Of a stretch of DNA of 39,046 bases, positions 3,548-38,791 are shown in pieces. Position numbers and translations under genes: made by a program. The DNA comes from a virus (Duplodnaviria > Caudoviricetes). The stretch is taken from positions 1-39,046 of IMG/VR virus record IMGVR_UViG_3300042297_000157; one strand, 5' to 3'. The notes beneath the pieces are model-generated. The model ran no database searches. It had not been told where the DNA came from and was given only the letters and a program-made list of their open reading frames with translations. The first letter of the stretch is position 1. Every line of letters begins with the position of its first letter.

Positions 3548-4642
3548 ATGATTCCTGGAATCGTTGAGTCTTCACGGTGGGTGTCACCGTTTTCGGATAC
3601 GTTCAATCGTGCCAACACAACCACAATGGCTACAGCAGAAGTTGAATGGGTTGAAACCATCCCTGACTGGCAGATTATTTCTAACAAAGCGTATACCGCT
3701 ACAGCCACATCTTCGTACCCACTCCTTAGTTTTGATGCCACTAAAGCAAACGTAACTATTAAAGCAACTGGGGATTTGAATGGTGCTGGTTTTGGTGTGG
3801 CATTCTGGGTTACCAATGCCACTAACTGGTGGGCTGTTGTAACCGATGTTACCCAAGGTAGTACTTCAGGAACTACTTACACATGCCCTAATGGTGGCAC
3901 TCTTTCGGGAACTACCTGTTTAAAGACTTGTTACCAAACCTGCTATCAAACTTGTTACGGTTCTTGTTGTAGTACTGGTACATGCGTGAATAATGGAAAC
4001 CTGTCTGATCAAGGCTGTGGTTTAGGTGGTTACGACTACGGATGTTATGACTCTGGCGGATGTAGTTGTGACGCTTATGGAGGCGTAGGAGACACTGCAA
4101 CCTGTACCTGTTATTACGGAGGGTCTGTTCCCTTATCTCAAAACTTCTCGGCTAGAGCCTGTATTGATGGCGGAGGGTACGTTTTTAATGGGCAGTGTTA
4201 TAACGCTGTTGCTTCTGGTCAAATACCAGGGTATTACTACGCAGGGACAGTAACTTCATATGTTTCTTGTAACCCATACGCCTGTAACCCATACGATTGC
4301 AACCCTTACGCATGTAACTACGATGCCACTGGGACTACTTCAACAATTACTACGTACACACATACTATGAAGTTGATCAGAAACAATGCGGGAACCATTT
4401 CAACGGTGGCTACCGTTGCTCTTGGTGCAGATAACACCACCCCTGTTTATGTTGCTTCTATACAAGTAAACACAAATGGATCAACCATCTCAGCAACGGC
4501 TCTACGAAATGGAACAAGTGTAAACCTTACAAACAGCCCAGCATCACCAGTTACATCCACTAAACATGGAATCATCCTTGCCCCAGTTACTACGACTGCT
4601 CTTTTGAGCAGAAACGTAGACCAATTTGATTATCTAGCGTGA
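3548..4642 (+). CDS. Putative fibre tip or receptor-binding protein: beta-rich (lectin-like) domain with a 20-Cys insert
   Basis: 364 aa. Beta-rich N- and C-terminal parts flank a Cys/Gly/Tyr-rich central region. Follows the fibre gene. Confidence 0.6.
   Translation: MIPGIVESSRWVSPFSDTFNRANTTTMATAEVEWVETIPDWQIISNKAYTATATSSYPLLSFDATKANVTIKATGDLNGAGFGVAFWVTNATNWWAVVTDVTQGSTSGTTYTCPNGGTLSGTTCLKTCYQTCYQTCYGSCCSTGTCVNNGNLSDQGCGLGGYDYGCYDSGGCSCDAYGGVGDTATCTCYYGGSVPLSQNFSARACIDGGGYVFNGQCYNAVASGQIPGYYYAGTVTSYVSCNPYACNPYDCNPYACNYDATGTTSTITTYTHTMKLIRNNAGTISTVATVALGADNTTPVYVASIQVNTNGSTISATALRNGTSVNLTNSPASPVTSTKHGIILAPVTTTALLSRNVDQFDYLA
3926..3961 (+). repeat. Three degenerate 12-bp repeats (TCYQ-TCYQ-TCYG)
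   Basis: acttgttaccaa / acctgctatcaa / acttgttacggt. Confidence 0.7.
4268..4318 (+). repeat. 15-bp tandem repeats (CNPYx, 3.4 copies)
   Basis: tgtaacccatacgcc / tgtaacccatacgat / tgcaacccttacgca / tgtaac. Confidence 0.8.
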
Positions 4643-4649
4643 GGTTTAA

Positions 4650-4805
4650 ATGACTCTTGAACGACCTATTCCTAAGCCAACTGGATCAGTTGCAGATATA
4701 ACAAGGGTTCTTGGAACGATGACACACCGCCACCGAGAGCAACAACCAGAAGTAAACCAGCCAACACGTGACACTGTTCCTGGGGCTGGCTCAGGAGATC
4801 AGTAA
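4650..4805 (+). CDS. Small hypothetical protein (51 aa, not in the ORF track)
   Basis: SD GAGGT, then MTLERPIPKPTGSVADITRVLGTMTHRHREQQPEVNQPTRDTVPGAGSGDQ*. Fills the gap between neighbouring genes. Confidence 0.7.
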   Translation: MTLERPIPKPTGSVADITRVLGTMTHRHREQQPEVNQPTRDTVPGAGSGDQ

Positions 4806-4812
4806 TTTGAAG

Positions 4813-4818
4813 TAAACT
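4813..4818 (+). promoter_or_regulatory. Putative -10 element for a leaderless transcript
   Basis: TAAACT exactly 6 nt before ATG 4825, with no SD at normal spacing. Confidence 0.45.
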
Positions 4819-4824
4819 GTAAGC

Positions 4825-10512: not shown

Positions 10513-13290
10513 ATGGCACCACTACCACCACCTGATGGTGAAAAGAGTTTGAATGGACCCTTTGGTGGATCCACCACGTCTGGTGGAGAACTCGCTCAAT
10601 TTCGTGCCAAGTTCAATGTTGACCTTAGCCAGATGTCAAAACTCATTACAGGCTTTCAAAGTCTTAAAGACAAGATAAAAGCAGTTGAGACTGCTGCTAC
10701 ATCGGCTACCAGCAAGGTTAACAGCCTCTCTAACGCTCTCCAAGGCGTAACAGGTGGTTCTGCGGGGTTAAACGTTTCTGCACCGTCTAACGGCACTACA
10801 AGCACTGGTACCGCCGTCTCACAGGCTATTGCTAGTAGTAAAGCCTCTGTAGTACCTAAGACTGGTTCTAGCCCTGTTGCTCAGGCTGGAATGATGGGTG
10901 GGAGTGGTAGTGGTTTCTTTTCCAACATGCGTGGTGCCGCCTTTCCAAGTGGTACAGGTGGCGGAGCAGGCATGGCGCAAGTTGCGCAATATGGTATGCA
11001 AGCCATTGGTGCAGGTATTAACGCAATTGATAACCGTACTAACCAGATGTATGGTCGTGCCTTACGGACTGACCAATTGGCTGTTCTTTATCAACAAACC
11101 GAAGGAATAAGTCAACAAGGTTATTATGATCAATATAGGAAACCTCTTCAAGGATTCCGACTTGGTGCTGATGGTACAAACCAATTATTAAGTCTGCAAG
11201 CACAGACAGGTATCAATGCCCAGAAACAAGCAGGAAGTATTCAAGGACTTAGCGCTGCTTTAGGTTACTCCTACAGCACTCAAGACTTTGCTTCAATGCT
11301 TACAACATTGGCTAACCCAATGGTCAACAACAGAATGACCATGACATTAGGAACTGGTTTGTATGGTCCTGGTGGTAAACAACGCTCCATGACTGAGGTG
11401 TTCCAAGGAGTTGTTCGTGGGTCTGGCTTAACAAATGAACGTTACCTTGCTGGTGCAATGCAACAAGGTTCTTCCGCCCGTGCACGTCTGACTCAGTTGG
11501 GTCTTCCTGAGGATATGCAAAATGCAGTCCTTCAATACGCTAAAGATAATGTCACTTTTCAAAAGAAAACTGGTGGCAATCAAGGGATGTATAACCCCGA
11601 ACTTAAATCCCAGCGTGAAATCATGGGCATTGAAAAGAACTTTGCCACACAGCAACAAGAGACAACTCGTAAACAAGAAGTAAAAGACGAGAAGTTCTAC
11701 AACCGTCAAAAAGACAACCTTGCGTCAATGGAAACCAACACGCAAAAGATGATTGAGTTGACCACCCGTATTCAAGAATTGACTTCTGCAATTACTGGTG
11801 CTCGCATCTCTAGTCGTGGAAATCCAATAACCAGAATTGGTGGAAGTCTTTTAAAGAAAGGTTTAGGCGCTGGCATTATCGCCGCTTCTGGTATTGGTAC
11901 CGTATTAAGCGGTGGTACTGCAACCCCATTAACACTTGGAACTGCTGCTTTTGGTGCAAGTTTGTTACTTGGAGATGGTACTGAAACAGCAAGCGGTAAG
12001 AAAAGTGCATCGGCTACTAAAGGTAAAGTTACTTCAGGAAGTTCTTCTGGATTAAACGATAAGTTTAGACAACGTCTTGAACAGATGATTGAAGCCTCTG
12101 GTGGAAAAGTAGGGATTGGCGGAGGATTTCGTTCTAGTGCTCAACAACGTAGTTTGTTCTTGTCTCGGTATAGTCGCACATCTGACAAGACTGGGACATT
12201 TTGGGATGGCGCATACTGGAAGAAGAACTCAGGTGTTGCAGACGCCGCTCCTCCAGGAATGTCAATGCACGAAATTGGACTGGCGGCTGACCTTACTGGT
12301 GACCTTAACTGGGTGCAAGAAAACGCCGCTAAGTATGGTTTGAAGACTTTTGCCAACGTCAACAACGAACCATGGCACGTACAGCCAGCAGAACTCCCTA
12401 ACAGCCGTCGTCAATATGAAAAGGCTGGGGCACCTTGGGGAACTATTGCTGGTGCGGAACGTATGGATCCAAATGCAACTTTTGAGGGAGCGTCTAGCGA
12501 CGGTGGAGTATCCGATGCTTTGTACAACTCAACTGGTTCTGGGAATGTAAACGCATACTCACAAATGGGTATGAGTGCTCAGATGGAAGCATTCAAAGTT
12601 GGATCTAGGAAACTAGGTGGCGGCGGCGGTGGCGGTCGTATGGCTACAGGACGCCGTACTCGTAACGTTGGATCCGCCAGCACCTCAACACAACAATCTG
12701 GTTCTGTAACAACTGGCAAAGCCATGGACCCCCGTGCAATTGCACAAATGCTATTGAATCGTGGATTTAAAAAAGAAGACATTTGGAAGATGCTTGCTAT
12801 CTCCCATAGAGAATCACGTTGGATACCTTCAGTACGTAACGTAGGTCCTGTTGATGACTCATATGGCTTGTTCCAAATAAATATGAAAGGCAACTTAGGG
12901 GAAGCCCGACGTAAGTATTTTGGTATTGCTGACGATAGTGAATTGTTTGATCCAAAAACTAACGTTAAAGCCGCCCGCATTACCTATGGCGGAGGAAACC
13001 TCTCACCTTGGAATGTTAAAGGTGACTGGAAGAACGGTATTGCCCCAGACAAAATGGCGCAGAGTAAACAAATTGCTCAGAGCATGAACTTACCAACCAC
13101 AGGTGACCCAACAACACCGTCACGTGGTGGAGGTAATACAACGGTTGTGCAAGGCGGGGGAGTTACTATCGCCCCAAATATCTACATCCAGTCAACGGGA
13201 AGTAACACTGCGGACGCAAAGCGTGCGGCTCAAGAAGTCGCTAACTTAATTACTCAAGATCTTAAACGAACCGCTATGAGGAACCTCTAA
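10513..13290 (+). CDS. Tape measure protein with M15 (VanY-like) peptidase and lytic transglycosylase domains
   Basis: 925 aa. M15 motifs 'GFRSSAQQ', 'APPGMSMHEIGLAAD', 'EPWH' (~12050-12390). SLT motifs 'AISHRES', 'SYGLFQIN', 'LFDPKTNVKAA' (~12720-13070). Confidence 0.88.
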   Translation: MAPLPPPDGEKSLNGPFGGSTTSGGELAQFRAKFNVDLSQMSKLITGFQSLKDKIKAVETAATSATSKVNSLSNALQGVTGGSAGLNVSAPSNGTTSTGTAVSQAIASSKASVVPKTGSSPVAQAGMMGGSGSGFFSNMRGAAFPSGTGGGAGMAQVAQYGMQAIGAGINAIDNRTNQMYGRALRTDQLAVLYQQTEGISQQGYYDQYRKPLQGFRLGADGTNQLLSLQAQTGINAQKQAGSIQGLSAALGYSYSTQDFASMLTTLANPMVNNRMTMTLGTGLYGPGGKQRSMTEVFQGVVRGSGLTNERYLAGAMQQGSSARARLTQLGLPEDMQNAVLQYAKDNVTFQKKTGGNQGMYNPELKSQREIMGIEKNFATQQQETTRKQEVKDEKFYNRQKDNLASMETNTQKMIELTTRIQELTSAITGARISSRGNPITRIGGSLLKKGLGAGIIAASGIGTVLSGGTATPLTLGTAAFGASLLLGDGTETASGKKSASATKGKVTSGSSSGLNDKFRQRLEQMIEASGGKVGIGGGFRSSAQQRSLFLSRYSRTSDKTGTFWDGAYWKKNSGVADAAPPGMSMHEIGLAADLTGDLNWVQENAAKYGLKTFANVNNEPWHVQPAELPNSRRQYEKAGAPWGTIAGAERMDPNATFEGASSDGGVSDALYNSTGSGNVNAYSQMGMSAQMEAFKVGSRKLGGGGGGGRMATGRRTRNVGSASTSTQQSGSVTTGKAMDPRAIAQMLLNRGFKKEDIWKMLAISHRESRWIPSVRNVGPVDDSYGLFQINMKGNLGEARRKYFGIADDSELFDPKTNVKAARITYGGGNLSPWNVKGDWKNGIAPDKMAQSKQIAQSMNLPTTGDPTTPSRGGGNTTVVQGGGVTIAPNIYIQSTGSNTADAKRAAQEVANLITQDLKRTAMRNL

Positions 13291-22537: not shown

Positions 22538-23347
22538 ATGCTAAAAAAGTACGGTGTATTAGGAACAGGTAGAACCAGCAAGAACATCATTGAAGATGCC
22601 CTTAATGAACTAGGTGTAGACAACGATTTTATTGTTACCTGTGGTGCCAAACCATCTGATTCAGAGTCACGAGTAATCAACTGGCTGATTGACATGGAAG
22701 TTAATTTCATGCTTACTCACAATGGAAAGGCTCCTGCGGAGTTTATTGAGAAGGCTTCAGTTGAGCGACTAGATGCAAACCCAGCAAGAGACATGATTCA
22801 TTATCTGTCAAAGACTAAGGGAACTCTTTTGCTTCTTTGGGATGACGCATTGATACCTGAGATGGAAGAGATTTGTTTTGATGCCGCTGATGCTGGCGTC
22901 CCAATCCTTGACTTGACTAATGGCCTTGTACCAATTGTTGTGGACATCACGCACGAAGAAAAGACTGCCCCAATACCAACTGAAGAAGTTGAGATTGAAC
23001 CATTCAGCCGTGCTGAAATGTTGTCAATGTCTATTGGTGTTTTGCGCAAGAACGCAAAGGCTCAAGGTATCCATGTTGGTACCACTATGACAAAAGAACA
23101 AATCGTTGATGCAATACTCAATGACGTTCCGATGCCAGAACCAGTCATTGAAGAAGAGGAAGAGATTCTTCCACCAATTGACCTAGGTACATTCCACGTT
23201 GTAAGCAGTGCTCAAAACGACCGAGCAATTACTAGTTCTTATAACACATGCATGCTTACGGCAACATTCCCTAGCGGAGTGATTATGAGCCGTCCTGCAA
23301 ATGTGGAAGAAGTCAAACAGTTGTTTGGCTTTGGGTCAACTATTTAA
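22538..23347 (+). CDS. Hypothetical protein with a Rossmann/SLOG-like N-terminus and a Rho-N-like helical motif
   Basis: 269 aa, SD AGGAG. 'YGVLGTGR' at the N-terminus and 'MSIGVLRKNAKAQGI...MTKEQIVDAIL'. Confidence 0.5.
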   Translation: MLKKYGVLGTGRTSKNIIEDALNELGVDNDFIVTCGAKPSDSESRVINWLIDMEVNFMLTHNGKAPAEFIEKASVERLDANPARDMIHYLSKTKGTLLLLWDDALIPEMEEICFDAADAGVPILDLTNGLVPIVVDITHEEKTAPIPTEEVEIEPFSRAEMLSMSIGVLRKNAKAQGIHVGTTMTKEQIVDAILNDVPMPEPVIEEEEEILPPIDLGTFHVVSSAQNDRAITSSYNTCMLTATFPSGVIMSRPANVEEVKQLFGFGSTI

Positions 23348-23355
23348 TTGATGCC

Positions 23356-23628
23356 TTAACAATCCCATTTTCGTAATGCTAAAGCCTTACGAGTAGGTTC
23401 ACCGTTTGGCTTCTTCATTGGACCTTCCATGCCACTCATACGAGCGCAAAAAGACTTACGGCGAGCCGCAGACTTTGGAGATTTACTAGCCTGTTCTTTA
23501 GACACAGGTGGCTTGAGGTCTGAACCAGGGTTTGCCTTCTCATAAGACTTACGACCTTTTTCGTTAAGTCCACCCTTTTCGTTCTTACCTTCTTTGCGTT
23601 GCCATGCTTCTGATTTCTTAGTTGCCAT
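23356..23628 (-). CDS. Small basic conserved phage protein (DUF6321-like)
   Basis: 90 aa with 'GGLNEKGR', 'RRKSFCARM' and 'ALRKWDC', recognised from memory as a widespread phage family. Confidence 0.75.
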   Translation of the reverse strand: MATKKSEAWQRKEGKNEKGGLNEKGRKSYEKANPGSDLKPPVSKEQASKSPKSAARRKSFCARMSGMEGPMKKPNGEPTRKALALRKWDC

Positions 23629-23792
23629 TACTTTTTACCTTTTTTACTGACAGCCATGTTGTCAACAAGGTTTGGGTACGGACGACCAGCGGCTTTTGCA
23701 CGAGCCTTTGCTTCTGACTTTTGGTCAGAGGTCAACTTGCTGGATTTCTTTTTAGGATTGGGTTTATCCCATACTTCTTTTTTAGATGCCAT
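23628..23792 (-). CDS. Small basic protein (54 aa, not in the ORF track)
   Basis: MASKKEVWDKPNPKKKSSKLTSDQKSEAKARAKAAGRPYPNLVDNMAVSKKGKK*. Its stop overlaps the next ATG (TAATG). Confidence 0.8.
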   Translation of the reverse strand: MASKKEVWDKPNPKKKSSKLTSDQKSEAKARAKAAGRPYPNLVDNMAVSKKGKK

Positions 23793-23798
23793 CAAACA

Positions 23799-23804
23799 AG
23801 TTTA
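23799..23804 (-). promoter_or_regulatory. Putative -10 element for a leaderless transcript
   Basis: Minus-strand TAAACT exactly 6 nt before ATG 23792, with no SD. Confidence 0.45.
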
Positions 23805-23807
23805 GCG

Positions 23808-23903
23808 GTTGAAGGGAGGGCCGTTAACAAGGGCAAGGGAAGAAAGGAGGGAAATACCCTTGCTCTGTAGTTCCTGAGGAGGTCGCCCTCCCCTCAACAC
23901 TAT
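23808..23903 (-). ncRNA. Candidate structured small RNA or leader with anti-SD (C/U-rich) single-stranded motifs
   Basis: 14-bp closing stem (23808-23821 with 23885-23898), inner 10-bp stem (23830-23839 with 23857-23866), loop containing CCCUCCUUUCU. Begins just after a -35/-10 match. Confidence 0.6.
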
Positions 23904-23908
23904 TGCAC

Positions 23909-23937
23909 ACTTTAGCACCCGATCAGGGAAGTGCCAA
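23909..23937 (-). promoter_or_regulatory. Sigma70-type promoter (leftward)
   Basis: Minus strand TTGGCA(23937-23932)-N17-TAAAGT(23914-23909). Confidence 0.6.
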
Positions 23938-23960
23938 AGTGACTAGCGAGAGTGTAGCAT
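23931..23960 (+). promoter_or_regulatory. Possible rightward promoter of the replication operon
   Basis: GTGCCA(23931-23936)-N18-TAGCAT(23955-23960), upstream of SD GAGGAG and ATG 23992. The -35 match is weak. Confidence 0.35.
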
Positions 23961-23991
23961 GGCGACCCTAGATAACAACCTGAGGAGCAAT

Positions 23992-24477
23992 ATGGCACGA
24001 AACAACAAGTTGAGTGGACCTTTTTTACCAGTCCCAAGGTGGGTCCTTCCGTACATCTCTACGGACTACATCTCACACGCAGTACTGAACCACATGCTCC
24101 AGTACCTGCACCCAGAAACGCAGGAACTGACAACCTCCTACCAGCACATTGCTGACCAGTTGGGCTGTGACCGCCGAACCGTAATTCGCTCTATGAAGCG
24201 CCTAGAAGAGATCGGTCTGATTGTCAAACAGCACCGTGTGACCCGCAGTAACAAGAACTTGACGAATCGCTATTACGTCAATTTTAACAACCCAGTAGTG
24301 TCACACGAGTCACCCCTAGTAGTGTCCATGGAGACACTAGGTAGTGTCACGGGAGACACCACTAGTAGTGTCACGGGTGACACCCAATCAAGAGTATATA
24401 ACAAGAGTAAAAATAACAAGAAAGGGAAAATTTCAATACAAGTAGATCAGAGGCTTGAAGATGAAGAAACTTTCTGA
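23992..24477 (+). CDS. Replication initiator, winged-HTH (lambda O-like organisation)
   Basis: 'SYQHIADQLGCDRRTVIRSMKRLEEIGLI...NRYYV' followed by an iteron-encoded linker. SD GAGGAG supports ATG 23992. Confidence 0.8.
   Translation: MARNNKLSGPFLPVPRWVLPYISTDYISHAVLNHMLQYLHPETQELTTSYQHIADQLGCDRRTVIRSMKRLEEIGLIVKQHRVTRSNKNLTNRYYVNFNNPVVSHESPLVVSMETLGSVTGDTTSSVTGDTQSRVYNKSKNNKKGKISIQVDQRLEDEETF
24295..24440. repeat. Putative replication origin: four iterons plus an A-rich tract
   Basis: GTAGTGTC-N6-G(A/T)CAC at 24295, 24319, 24341 and 24365, each a GTGTC/GACAC dyad (copy 1 has one mismatch), followed by an A-rich stretch at 24385-24440. Confidence 0.8.
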
Positions 24478-24862
24478 CGACTGGGGCGTCGGCTTAGGTG
24501 AAGACCCTGACAAAAAAGAACCCGCCCCAAAACAGACCCGCCAAGACTCCCGTGGGAACTTGGTGTACTTCTTCCGAGCCAGCCTCCCGACCGAGACCAT
24601 GGACAGGATCACCTCCCCAGTGAATGGTCCTGCCCTGATGAAGGGTTTCAAGAAACTTACCGACAAGGGCTTTACAACCGATCAGATTCGTGCCATGATC
24701 ATGGCGTTCGTAAAAGAAATAACACGGAGACCGTTACCAGTGGAGGTGGCACCGTGGAGAGCCTTTCTAGCGAACTTAGATAAATACGCAAAGGAGAATT
24801 ATGTCAAAGAAGACGATCAGCCGACCTCAATCTCAATTGACCCAAGACTTACCGAAGAATAG
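24461..24862 (+). CDS. Hypothetical replication-associated protein
   Basis: About 133 aa, overlaps the initiator stop, upstream of the loader gene. Confidence 0.7.
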   Translation: MKKLSDDWGVGLGEDPDKKEPAPKQTRQDSRGNLVYFFRASLPTETMDRITSPVNGPALMKGFKKLTDKGFTTDQIRAMIMAFVKEITRRPLPVEVAPWRAFLANLDKYAKENYVKEDDQPTSISIDPRLTEE

Positions 24863-33638: not shown

Positions 33639-33991
33639 TGCAAGATATAGAGCAACGTAACTTCTATCTCATGTTGTCGGTCCCTGATGGACAGGATTAC
33701 GCCAGCACTATGGGCTTCTCCAGACCATCAGAAGATGTAAGAGAAGTGGAGTACGCAGATGTCCTGTCTCGTTGGGGCGTCTTTATTGCTACTGACATAT
33801 ACAACGAGATCATAGAAGGCGGTAATTGGTTTGCTGATTTACTAGAGAAATCGGATAAACTAGTATCCCCTAAAGATGAGATTGTTGCCATATTGACAGT
33901 ATTCGGTATGGCGATGGTTAACAAACTGGCGGACTCAGAGAGAATTTTAATAATGTTAGACAACTTGATGGAGGAAGAAGACGATGAGTGA
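33638..33991 (+). CDS. Hypothetical protein
   Basis: 117 aa, TAATG-coupled to polA. Confidence 0.75.
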   Translation: MQDIEQRNFYLMLSVPDGQDYASTMGFSRPSEDVREVEYADVLSRWGVFIATDIYNEIIEGGNWFADLLEKSDKLVSPKDEIVAILTVFGMAMVNKLADSERILIMLDNLMEEEDDE

Positions 33992-36743: not shown

Positions 36744-37107
36744 ACTGATGTCTCTCTACGGAGAGTTCATGGCATGGGTGTCTTATGCCAAAGCAGAATT
36801 AGTTGAAGCAGAGATCAGCGAAGAACGACAAGCAAACAACTGTCGTATCGTTGAGGCTAAGTGCTTGATCGGTCAATGGAGCGACACCGCTAAAGGTGAC
36901 ACCGTTACATTGGCTAAAGCCCGCCGAGATGTTGACCCTGCTGTTATTGAACAACAGGAAGAGCACTTGAATACTCGTGCGTACCGCAAGATGGTGGACT
37001 CAGTGTTTGAGCGCTGTGAACGTGGTGCACAAGTGTTGTCACGAGAACTAAGCCGCCGTATCAGTATTGCTCCGCAGGAGCGTAGACAAGCACGATACAA
37101 CCCATGA
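36583..37107 (+). CDS. Helical hypothetical protein, possibly a UvsY-like recombination mediator (start uncertain)
   Basis: 174 aa coiled coil ending 'LSRELSRR', in the recA/nuclease cluster. Confidence 0.55.
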   Translation: MRTILRPEPMTMTNSSQDNSSVRERFNQKFTMPPRPAGEMPQVPQYLDELSDAELMSLYGEFMAWVSYAKAELVEAEISEERQANNCRIVEAKCLIGQWSDTAKGDTVTLAKARRDVDPAVIEQQEEHLNTRAYRKMVDSVFERCERGAQVLSRELSRRISIAPQERRQARYNP

Positions 37108-37895
37108 CCATTGTTCTGTTTAAAGATGTGCCCATTGGTCCAATACCAATCACACCAATCACACCAAACATTTCTGAGGATGCTTGTCCTATTGCTCGTG
37201 ACACCTTGTTTCATTACGCAAAGAACCTTGGCGTACCAGTAGGTTACAAACAAGAACAAAACGGCAGACTGATTCAAAACGTTGTGCCCAACCCAAAGAC
37301 TGAGTACGCACAAATATCATCGTCATCTAAAGCGGACTTAGCGCTACATACTGAGACAGCCTTTCACCCCTATAAGCCTGACTACATCATGCTGTTGTGC
37401 TTGCGTGGTGATCCTAAAGCCTTTACAACGTATGCGCAGTTACAGGACATACTGCCTGAGTTAGATGACATATGCATTGCTTTGTTATCTCAACCTTTAT
37501 TTGAAACAACTGTTGACGACAGTTTTAGAACCAAGGGTGAACCTGACACGGTTGTAACAACAACTGTCTTGGGCATTAAAGATGGACGACCAACCATGTG
37601 TTACGACAAGTCTGTAATGCGTGGCACCACGGTGGCGTCCCAAGATGCTCTAGAAGAGTTTGGTCGTGCTGTAGAGAAGCACACTAAAGAGATAGCGCTG
37701 GGCAGAGGTGATTTATTGATCATTGATAACTCCAACACCATCCATGGTCGTAAGCCATTCCAAGCCAGTTATGACGGGACCGATCGTTGGGTTCAGCGTT
37801 TACTTGTCCGCAGTTACACCAGCCCAATATCTCCAGATTTGGAAATGTGCCCAACAACTGGCTACCCTGTTATTACTAAATACACAAAGGAGTGA
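37104..37895 (+). CDS. Fe(II)/2-oxoglutarate oxygenase, clavaminate synthase / AsnO-like (TauD superfamily)
   Basis: 'EQNGRLIQNVVP', HxE in 'LHTETAFHP', 'LLCLR', 'IIDN...HGR', 'DGTDRWVQR'. Confidence 0.88.
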   Translation: MTIVLFKDVPIGPIPITPITPNISEDACPIARDTLFHYAKNLGVPVGYKQEQNGRLIQNVVPNPKTEYAQISSSSKADLALHTETAFHPYKPDYIMLLCLRGDPKAFTTYAQLQDILPELDDICIALLSQPLFETTVDDSFRTKGEPDTVVTTTVLGIKDGRPTMCYDKSVMRGTTVASQDALEEFGRAVEKHTKEIALGRGDLLIIDNSNTIHGRKPFQASYDGTDRWVQRLLVRSYTSPISPDLEMCPTTGYPVITKYTKE

Positions 37896-38500: not shown

Positions 38501-38791
38501 ATGTCACAAGAACTTAATTCCCCAATTGAAGACGTCCTTAAAGTATCGGGTTCCAGTAACCCACAGAGCGTTGGATCCATTCTTGCCCGTGCAGTGAACG
38601 CAGGTCAAGCGCCAAAGATGCGAGCGATCGGTGCAAGTGCTGTAAATCAAGCCGCAAAAGCCGCCGCCATTGCTAGAGGCTTTGTTGCCCCACGTGGTGT
38701 TGATCTTACTTACATTATTGGCTTTGATGATATTATTGGTGATAACGGAGAATCCATTTCGGCTATCTCCTTCAAACCAATTGTGAGGTAG
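38501..38791 (+). CDS. spoVS: Stage V sporulation protein S family
   Basis: 'VLKVSGSSNPQSVG', 'RAIGASAVNQAAKAAAIARGFVAPRGVDL' and 'ISAISF' match the SpoVS signature. Confidence 0.9.
   Translation: MSQELNSPIEDVLKVSGSSNPQSVGSILARAVNAGQAPKMRAIGASAVNQAAKAAAIARGFVAPRGVDLTYIIGFDDIIGDNGESISAISFKPIVR

Follow-up and report, generated by a model that had tools for sequence, protein, structure and literature searches.

A candidate small RNA of a probable actinophage, predicted to expose two anti-Shine-Dalgarno segments, one of them complementary to a phage-specific ribosome-site tag

The gap between a replication-initiator-like gene and two small divergent genes of a tailed phage raises the question of whether it encodes an RNA and, if so, which ribosome sites such an RNA would address. 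We analysed the whole stretch of 39,046 nucleotides that contains it (the window). This virus record is 41% complete; its structural genes, of myovirus type, extend to ~22.3 kb, and replication genes begin at 24 kb. The element is flanked on one side by two small basic genes on the minus strand (a 54-aa ORF and a DUF6321 gene) and on the other by an HTH initiator-like gene on the plus strand (Table 1). An initial annotation, whose quoted sequence we found at 23808..23937, had proposed here a small RNA displaying anti-Shine-Dalgarno motifs, in what it took for the largest non-coding gap; this holds among annotated genes if the initiator starts at 23992 (199 nt), but not with a start at 23959 (166 nt, shorter than 4643-4824). 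GAGGAG lies 4 nt before the ATG at 23992, and the upstream ATG (23959) is in frame in just eight of the 16 relatives (out of 18) whose loci were parsed correctly. Given the two WhiB genes in all five relatives searched and the Streptomyces phages as best cultured capsid matches (59%), the host is likely an actinobacterium.

Other features of the window include a tape-measure-like protein with VanY-type peptidase and SLT lysozyme domains (10513-13290), a TauD-family dioxygenase gene (37104-37895) and a SpoVS-family gene (38501-38791). Four TAGTGTC repeats, nested as direct and inverted copies, lie inside the initiator gene (24296-24383), with one further copy in the window; the array looks like an iteron-type replication origin.

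Table 1. Coordinates of the candidate RNA, its predicted promoters and neighbouring genes in the window.
Feature	Position	Strand	Observation
Candidate small RNA, longest form ~140 nt (5′ hairpin, then nested two-stem fold)	23805..23945	-	z -4.09, 0/200 shuffles; 17 homologs
Nested two-stem fold	23808..23898	-	closing stem 23885-23898/23808-23821
Closing stem	23885-23898/23808-23821	-	13 pairs, 100% of cells paired, 6 changed on both sides
Inner stem and 17-nt loop	23830..23866	-	11 pairs, 100% paired, 4 changed on both sides
Junction GACCUCCUCAGG, weak 3-bp hairpin with CCUC loop	23873..23884	-	exact complement of tag CCUGAGGAGGUC
5′ hairpin P0, containing the -35/-10 of the initial annotation	23908..23941	-	folds in 17/17
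-10 TAAAGT (promoter B, predicted start ~23901-23903)	23909..23914	-	TAnnGT 5-7 nt before invariant AG
Extended -10 TGCTACACT (promoter A, predicted start ~23944)	23951..23959	-	TGnTACACT in 17/17
Overlapping -10 TAGCAT, predicted for the initiator operon	23955..23960	+	AGTGTA[AG]CA[AT] in all 16 parsed relatives
Downstream -10 TAAACT (predicted leaderless promoter C), 6 nt before the ATG of the 54-aa ORF	23799..23804	-	TAnnnT in 17/17
Initiator ribosome site CCTGAGGAG, 9-nt complement of the junction	23979..23987	+	invariant in 18/18 carriers
54-aa basic ORF	23628..23792	-	PHROG 34011
DUF6321 gene	23356..23628	-	Pfam PF19846, E 4.8e-29
HTH replication-initiator-like gene, probable start 23992	23992..24477	+	PHROG 270/391 replication initiation; alignment

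The nested fold proposed by the initial annotation was confirmed, with both stems as described and more stable than shuffles. The closing stem (23808-23821/23885-23898) has 14-nt arms with 93% complementarity at the DNA level and one minus-strand G-U, and the inner stem (23830-23839/23857-23866) has 10-nt arms, 90% complementary, with 17 nt between them. Folding gave z -3.60 for the minus strand (0/200 shuffles equally stable) and z -2.71 for the plus strand (2/200).

Protein-anchored searches and a motif scan yielded 17 distinct homologous sequences, 14 of them found without the motif pattern; the 118 pattern matches in metagenomes, mostly due to chance, were kept only with ACAGAG in the spacer, which left 18 distinct loci among 325. 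Wherever the neighbouring gene is at least 66% identical, in 19 loci altogether, the element was present (16 seen directly, three by contig identity). The DUF6321 gene was a poor anchor, with the RNA in 2/80 loci, both identical to the window. A model built from the 17 homologs found one strong copy each in the window and in three related genomes (G001, G002 and G003). In the comparison of relatives that the initial annotation proposed as a check, the stems covary and the cores of loop and junction do not vary: both stems are paired in 408/408 cells, 10 of 24 pairs carry compensatory changes on both sides, and ACCUCCUCAGG in the junction and CCUCCUUUC in the loop are invariant in 17/17. No shuffle of 500 matched the score of the full 29-pair structure and slid controls paired at 46-56%, the 17 sequences being related, so that the shuffle counts for covariation are not probabilities. 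A further copy (L086:2804-2952), otherwise near-identical to L085, is shorter by 29 nt, so that the closing stem has no 3′ strand and the downstream -10 is gone; this is either a true deletion or an assembly error.

The initial annotation had held that folding alone does not fix the strand. In the window both strands beat shuffles, the minus strand more so; across relatives 18 G-U cells at 7 pair positions on the minus strand would turn A-C on the plus strand, leaving 390/408 cells paired there, and the minus fold is the more stable in 14/17 sequences. These G-U cells favour the minus strand for the structured RNA, despite one invariant A-C mismatch, left outside the structure, that would be G-U on the plus strand. 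The element thus combines a conserved, covarying structure on one strand with an exposed, conserved seed complementary to ribosome sites, as a trans-acting RNA directed against ribosome-binding sites would, and this conserved folded sequence of the phage is probably a small RNA gene. Of five sequencing runs, all with a word share of at most 0.18, four were compared with the window: three RNA runs gave no cover over 23813-23913, and the fourth is probably DNA. Their contigs are of relatives and have no bearing either way on transcription or habitat.

The minus-strand promoter from which the initial annotation started the RNA, TTGGCA-N17-TAAAGT, is present and is the only promoter-like match in 23300-24500, where 1.0 is expected by chance. 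Its -10 is conserved as TAnnGT (16/17 relatives by script, the 17th by eye), but its -35 TTGGCA is kept in only 4/17, and both boxes lie in a hairpin of 12-17 pairs with G-C/G-U/A-U exchanges across the 17 relatives. Upstream, the TACACT of promoter A is retained in more distant relatives too. TGnTACACT on the minus strand overlaps TAGCAT on the plus strand with predicted starts 23 bp apart, a distance among the spacings of bidirectional promoters listed in passages of 10.1101/2020.01.31.928960, and we infer that the RNA and the initiator operon share a bidirectional promoter. With both TGnTACACT and the nested -10 conserved, the predicted RNA may be ~140 nt or ~96 nt long, or may exist in both forms. 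The closing stem is not followed by a U-tract. Past the fold lies a third -10, with an ATG 6 nt beyond it in 14/17 relatives (alignment), which suggests that the RNA and the 54-aa ORF can be expressed separately.

The 54-aa ORF appears leaderless and the DUF6321 gene overlaps it, in keeping with an earlier view of the adjacent genes as leaderless or translationally coupled; the initiator, with its GAGGAG, does not fit. The related idea that the phage escapes its own RNA through leaderless genes is not supported either; AGGAG or GGAGG stands at 10/24 window gene starts.

What, then, would the RNA pair with? The conserved minus-strand fold supports the two exposed anti-Shine-Dalgarno segments that had been proposed, one in the loop and one in the junction, whereas the label of 16S 3′-tail mimic suits only the first. 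The loop core (23842-23850, minus strand) is open in the fold and matches the 16S tail, as verified at the 16S end in 6/6 actinobacterial loci; the identical tail occurs in many other phyla, and the A that precedes it in 16S also precedes the loop core in 5/17 sequences. The junction, which costs 2.3 kcal/mol to open, deviates from the 16S tail at five bases, and all five fit a phage-specific ribosome-site tag of which it is the complement (we take the host-type site to be GAAAGGAGG). Since the junction complements this tag and not the plain 16S tail, it points to phage mRNAs as the main predicted targets. The 9-mer complement of the loop core occurs in the three related genomes only in the RNA gene, and therefore perfect targets of the loop, if there are any, are not phage mRNAs.

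The tag CCUGAGGAGGUC is a hairpin at the ribosome site of small genes, 5-14 of which are tagged per related genome. On one strand, CCTGAGGAGG occurs 5 times in G001 and 9 times each in G002 and G003, within a 5-8 kb cluster of small genes ~30 kb from the RNA gene; on the opposite strand each of these genomes has a single copy, the RNA gene itself (~0.07 expected per strand). Among 30 further loci, some of them redundant, AGACCTGAGGAGGTCA is the commonest form. Of 59 tag-like sites, 54 have a stem of at least 4 bp around a GAGG loop, the fourth pair being A-U in 39 and G-C in 14. The tags are ACCT-N4-AGGT quasi-palindromes, and the junction is the mirror hairpin of the tag, weakened to 3 bp. 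The tagged cluster is preceded by a long non-coding region, which in both G001 (~60,550-60,580, plus strand) and G002 (~35,290) contains a conserved pyrimidine-rich stretch with CUCCUCCUCC.

When the non-self partners of the junction are ranked genome-wide, the top 10 include 8 tags in G001, 9 in G002 and 10 in G003, at -21 to -26 kcal/mol; the best partners of the 16S-like loop in these genomes reach -17 to -18 kcal/mol and lie mostly off gene starts. With opening costs included, the window RNA pairs with the 11 tags of one relative (contig L486) at -10.5 to -16.1 kcal/mol. Against the 24 gene starts of the window it reaches -5.1 kcal/mol or weaker at 21, the stronger partners being the initiator (-10.5 kcal/mol), baseplate J (-9.5) and the gene at 33984 (-9.3). 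The incomplete window is without the tagged cluster and L486 without overlap to it, so the window's own targets are predicted from relatives.

Carriers of both RNA and tags form one clade of three genomes. Neither tag nor RNA was found in the complete genome G019, in the 77%-complete G020 or in 94.6 of the 114.6 kb of the cultured relative LuckySocke. The complete genome G004 has 14 tags and no match to the RNA model, with a different two-hairpin element at the RNA site. Just before its terminase gene (62,230-62,330, minus strand), G004 carries a nested fold that leaves GACCUCCUC unpaired and has a CCCCCUUUC loop, with a long hairpin next to come; G001-G003 have no such fold at this position. 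A changed tag together with its own RNA on one contig was not found among the 13 early-region contigs, which are too short to include the RNA locus, or by two distant-RNA pattern scans, which gave no contig reaching the early region and three extra matches that are unrelated.

The conserved fold with its bias towards the minus strand, the clustered tags of relatives and their exact complementarity to the junction are all directly observed. From these we consider it fairly probable that a trans-acting RNA represses the tagged phage mRNAs together; these are presumably early, to judge by gene size and position. Transcription would start at the promoter shared with the replication operon on the opposite strand, or else from the inner -10, so that the RNA would appear as the replication genes switch on. 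The CCUC mini-loop of the junction would then meet the GAGG loop of a tag, in a predicted loop-loop contact, and zip to 11-12 bp covering GAGGAGGU, which would block translation of the tagged small gene cluster as a group. The junction could also damp the initiator's own ribosome site (9 bp), and the loop, as a copy of the 16S tail, could add weaker, broad pairing with host or phage Shine-Dalgarno sites.

That last contribution could instead be the main one, the 16S-like loop serving chiefly as a broad block of host mRNAs. This would account for the invariance of the loop core, for the preceding A in some sequences and for a loop complement confined to the RNA gene, and the distant relatives L446/L448 retain the loop UUUUUACCUCCUUUCUU on another scaffold. 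The five departures of the junction from the 16S tail, however, all suit the phage tag, and the window genes with AGGAG or GGAGG would be struck as well, so we judge a general anti-Shine-Dalgarno RNA unlikely as the main role, though it can coexist with tag repression.

A second alternative is a feedback antisense RNA that arises from the same promoter, pairs with the leader of the adjacent initiator and sets initiator level. CCTGAGGAG, kept at the initiator site of every carrier, is found in 0/23 more distant loci, and the initiator is the strongest partner of the junction among window gene starts. In relatives with ~47-55% identical initiators, TGnTACACT is likewise followed by hairpin pairs, but of other kinds and in several cases with C/U-rich loops; upstream of the initiator, L446/L448, L438/L439, L443, L436/L440 and L339 thus have different two- or three-hairpin RNAs, that of L446/L448 with 13 nt pairing with its own initiator site. 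In a post hoc test against shuffles, pairing of such a syntenic RNA with its own initiator leader exceeded chance in three distant lineages (3 and 2 of 300 shuffles for L446/L448, 0/300 for L436/L440, 2/300 for L339) but neither in L438/L439 (247 and 68 of 300) and L443 (25 of 300) nor in the window's clade, where the match is 9 nt (51, 26, 40 and 115 of 300). Moreover, the initiator site does not pair with the three junction bases 5′ of the match, although these never vary. As the principal function we find initiator feedback quite doubtful; it, too, can coexist with repression of the tagged genes.

The element could also act in cis, as a 5′ leader for the two small basic ORFs, or as DNA, with a phage protein binding palindromic or direct-repeat operators and the tags serving as further DNA sites, a possibility raised by the quasi-palindromic form of the tags. 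The lack of a terminator U-tract would fit such an element, as would the direct repeat that junction and initiator site form at the DNA level, 106 bp apart and flanking the promoter. Covariation that tolerates G-U indicates RNA, however; the small ORF has its own -10 in 17/17, the downstream gene differs in at least four carriers while the fold persists, and the CCUC spacer is invariant, though not obviously needed by an operator. We therefore regard this reading as highly unlikely. A plus-strand decoy, as also suggested initially, would present GAGGAGGU and AGAAAGGAGG to the ribosome, or perhaps to a protein that binds the tag. It seems barely credible: that strand folds too and would gain a G-U at the invariant mismatch, but it loses the 18 G-U cells to A-C, has the less stable fold in most relatives and is not the one that the conserved -10 boxes face.

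The Rfam search proposed in the initial annotation matched the candidate to no known family: over the window there was no match at gathering threshold, and 23600-24100 gave chance-level hits only (E 0.35 or worse). The region had no blastn match in 50,697 annotated phage records, a pattern scan of prokaryote genomes gave 0 matches, and we found no description of the candidate RNA in the literature searched. The supplement files searched of a catalogue of viral structured RNAs (PMC10690425) contained neither the motif nor three contig numbers; a prior listing in its other files, which likely hold the alignments, is possible. The structured phage RNA candidate is, on the strength of its conservation, real, is uncatalogued in Rfam and has a specific predicted target class.

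To our knowledge, early-gene shut-off in lytic phages is attributed mainly to protein factors such as T4 RegB. If repression of the tagged genes by the RNA holds, a single RNA reading a genome-wide tag would be a different, programmable way to shut early genes, and in actinobacteria, reported in passages of PMC6486639 to be without Hfq and ProQ, the tag-RNA pair could find use as an orthogonal translation switch. More tentatively, and with rather less confidence, we suggest that actinophages mark a gene class with a private hairpin tag and silence that class by one mirror sRNA fired from the replication-operon promoter, an RNA-only early-to-middle switch that might also explain the start-associated sequences (SAS) of cluster K mycobacteriophages.

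In the parts of PMC3203893 that deal with SAS, their function is unexplained, their partner, RNA or protein, is left undecided, and one reverse copy is reported in four K1 phages. The system described here resembles SAS, in which many non-structural genes are preceded by a private ribosome-site tag of hairpin-like form, with one copy reversed (PMC3203893). It differs in sequence, the cluster K element being the 13-bp GGGATAGGAGCCC in the same passages and the tag here RCCTGAGGAGGY; the window RNA and its phage are unrelated, with no model match in the Anaya stretch, and its antisense segment sits in a junction, with a second, 16S-like loop. The reverse SAS of Anaya is in the gap between genes 96 and 97, where it is shown as a hairpin loop (region z -4.84). 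A 17-bp hairpin precedes it in this gap (L414:29780-29960; record 59,779-59,959). Adephagia shows the same arrangement, with the reverse SAS in a hairpin loop that is again intergenic and preceded by a 17-bp hairpin (L643, near 3600-3730). The stretch matches 145 mycobacteriophage records, and in some of these a hypothetical protein is annotated across it; the match to Pixie covers only the first half, and the reverse site was not found in the last 11 kb scanned of that phage. By analogy, Anaya and Adephagia appear to show the same tag/antisense logic, and the model of a tag silenced by its mirror RNA offers a concrete test of the SAS role in phages growing on Mycobacterium smegmatis.

Among characterized RNAs, the closest in manner is the 6C (B11) sRNA of Actinobacteria (RF01066), whose unpaired C-rich segments pair with G-rich ribosome sites of many mRNAs and which reportedly needs no RNA chaperone, according to passages of PMC6486639. 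The likely host phylum is the same. Unlike 6C, the window RNA has no C6 loops, and in place of two side-by-side hairpins with C-rich loops it has one CU-rich loop and one junction in a nested fold; it is phage-encoded, with predicted phage targets. The 6C covariance model gave no match to it, in a search whose Corynebacterium control matched below the cut-off. The c4 antisense RNA of phages P1 and P7 is likewise a phage-encoded structured RNA with loops that pair near a phage ribosome site and block translation, as outlined in sections of PMC12197685 and PMC8198154. As those sections present it, c4 acts on one operon (icd-ant) in the immunity region, whereas the window RNA segment matches 5-14 dispersed gene starts ~30 kb away. 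C4 (RF01695) had no match in full Rfam scans, and a separate model search, in which its controls also gave no match, was empty. The T4 RegB endoribonuclease, from what passages of PMC3014915 state, shuts off early phage mRNAs via GGAG ribosome sites; it is a protein nuclease inhibited by RNA structure, whereas here an RNA would recognise hairpin tags by pairing. The candidate RNA would thus act like 6C and c4 while belonging to neither family, and would do the job of RegB by pairing.
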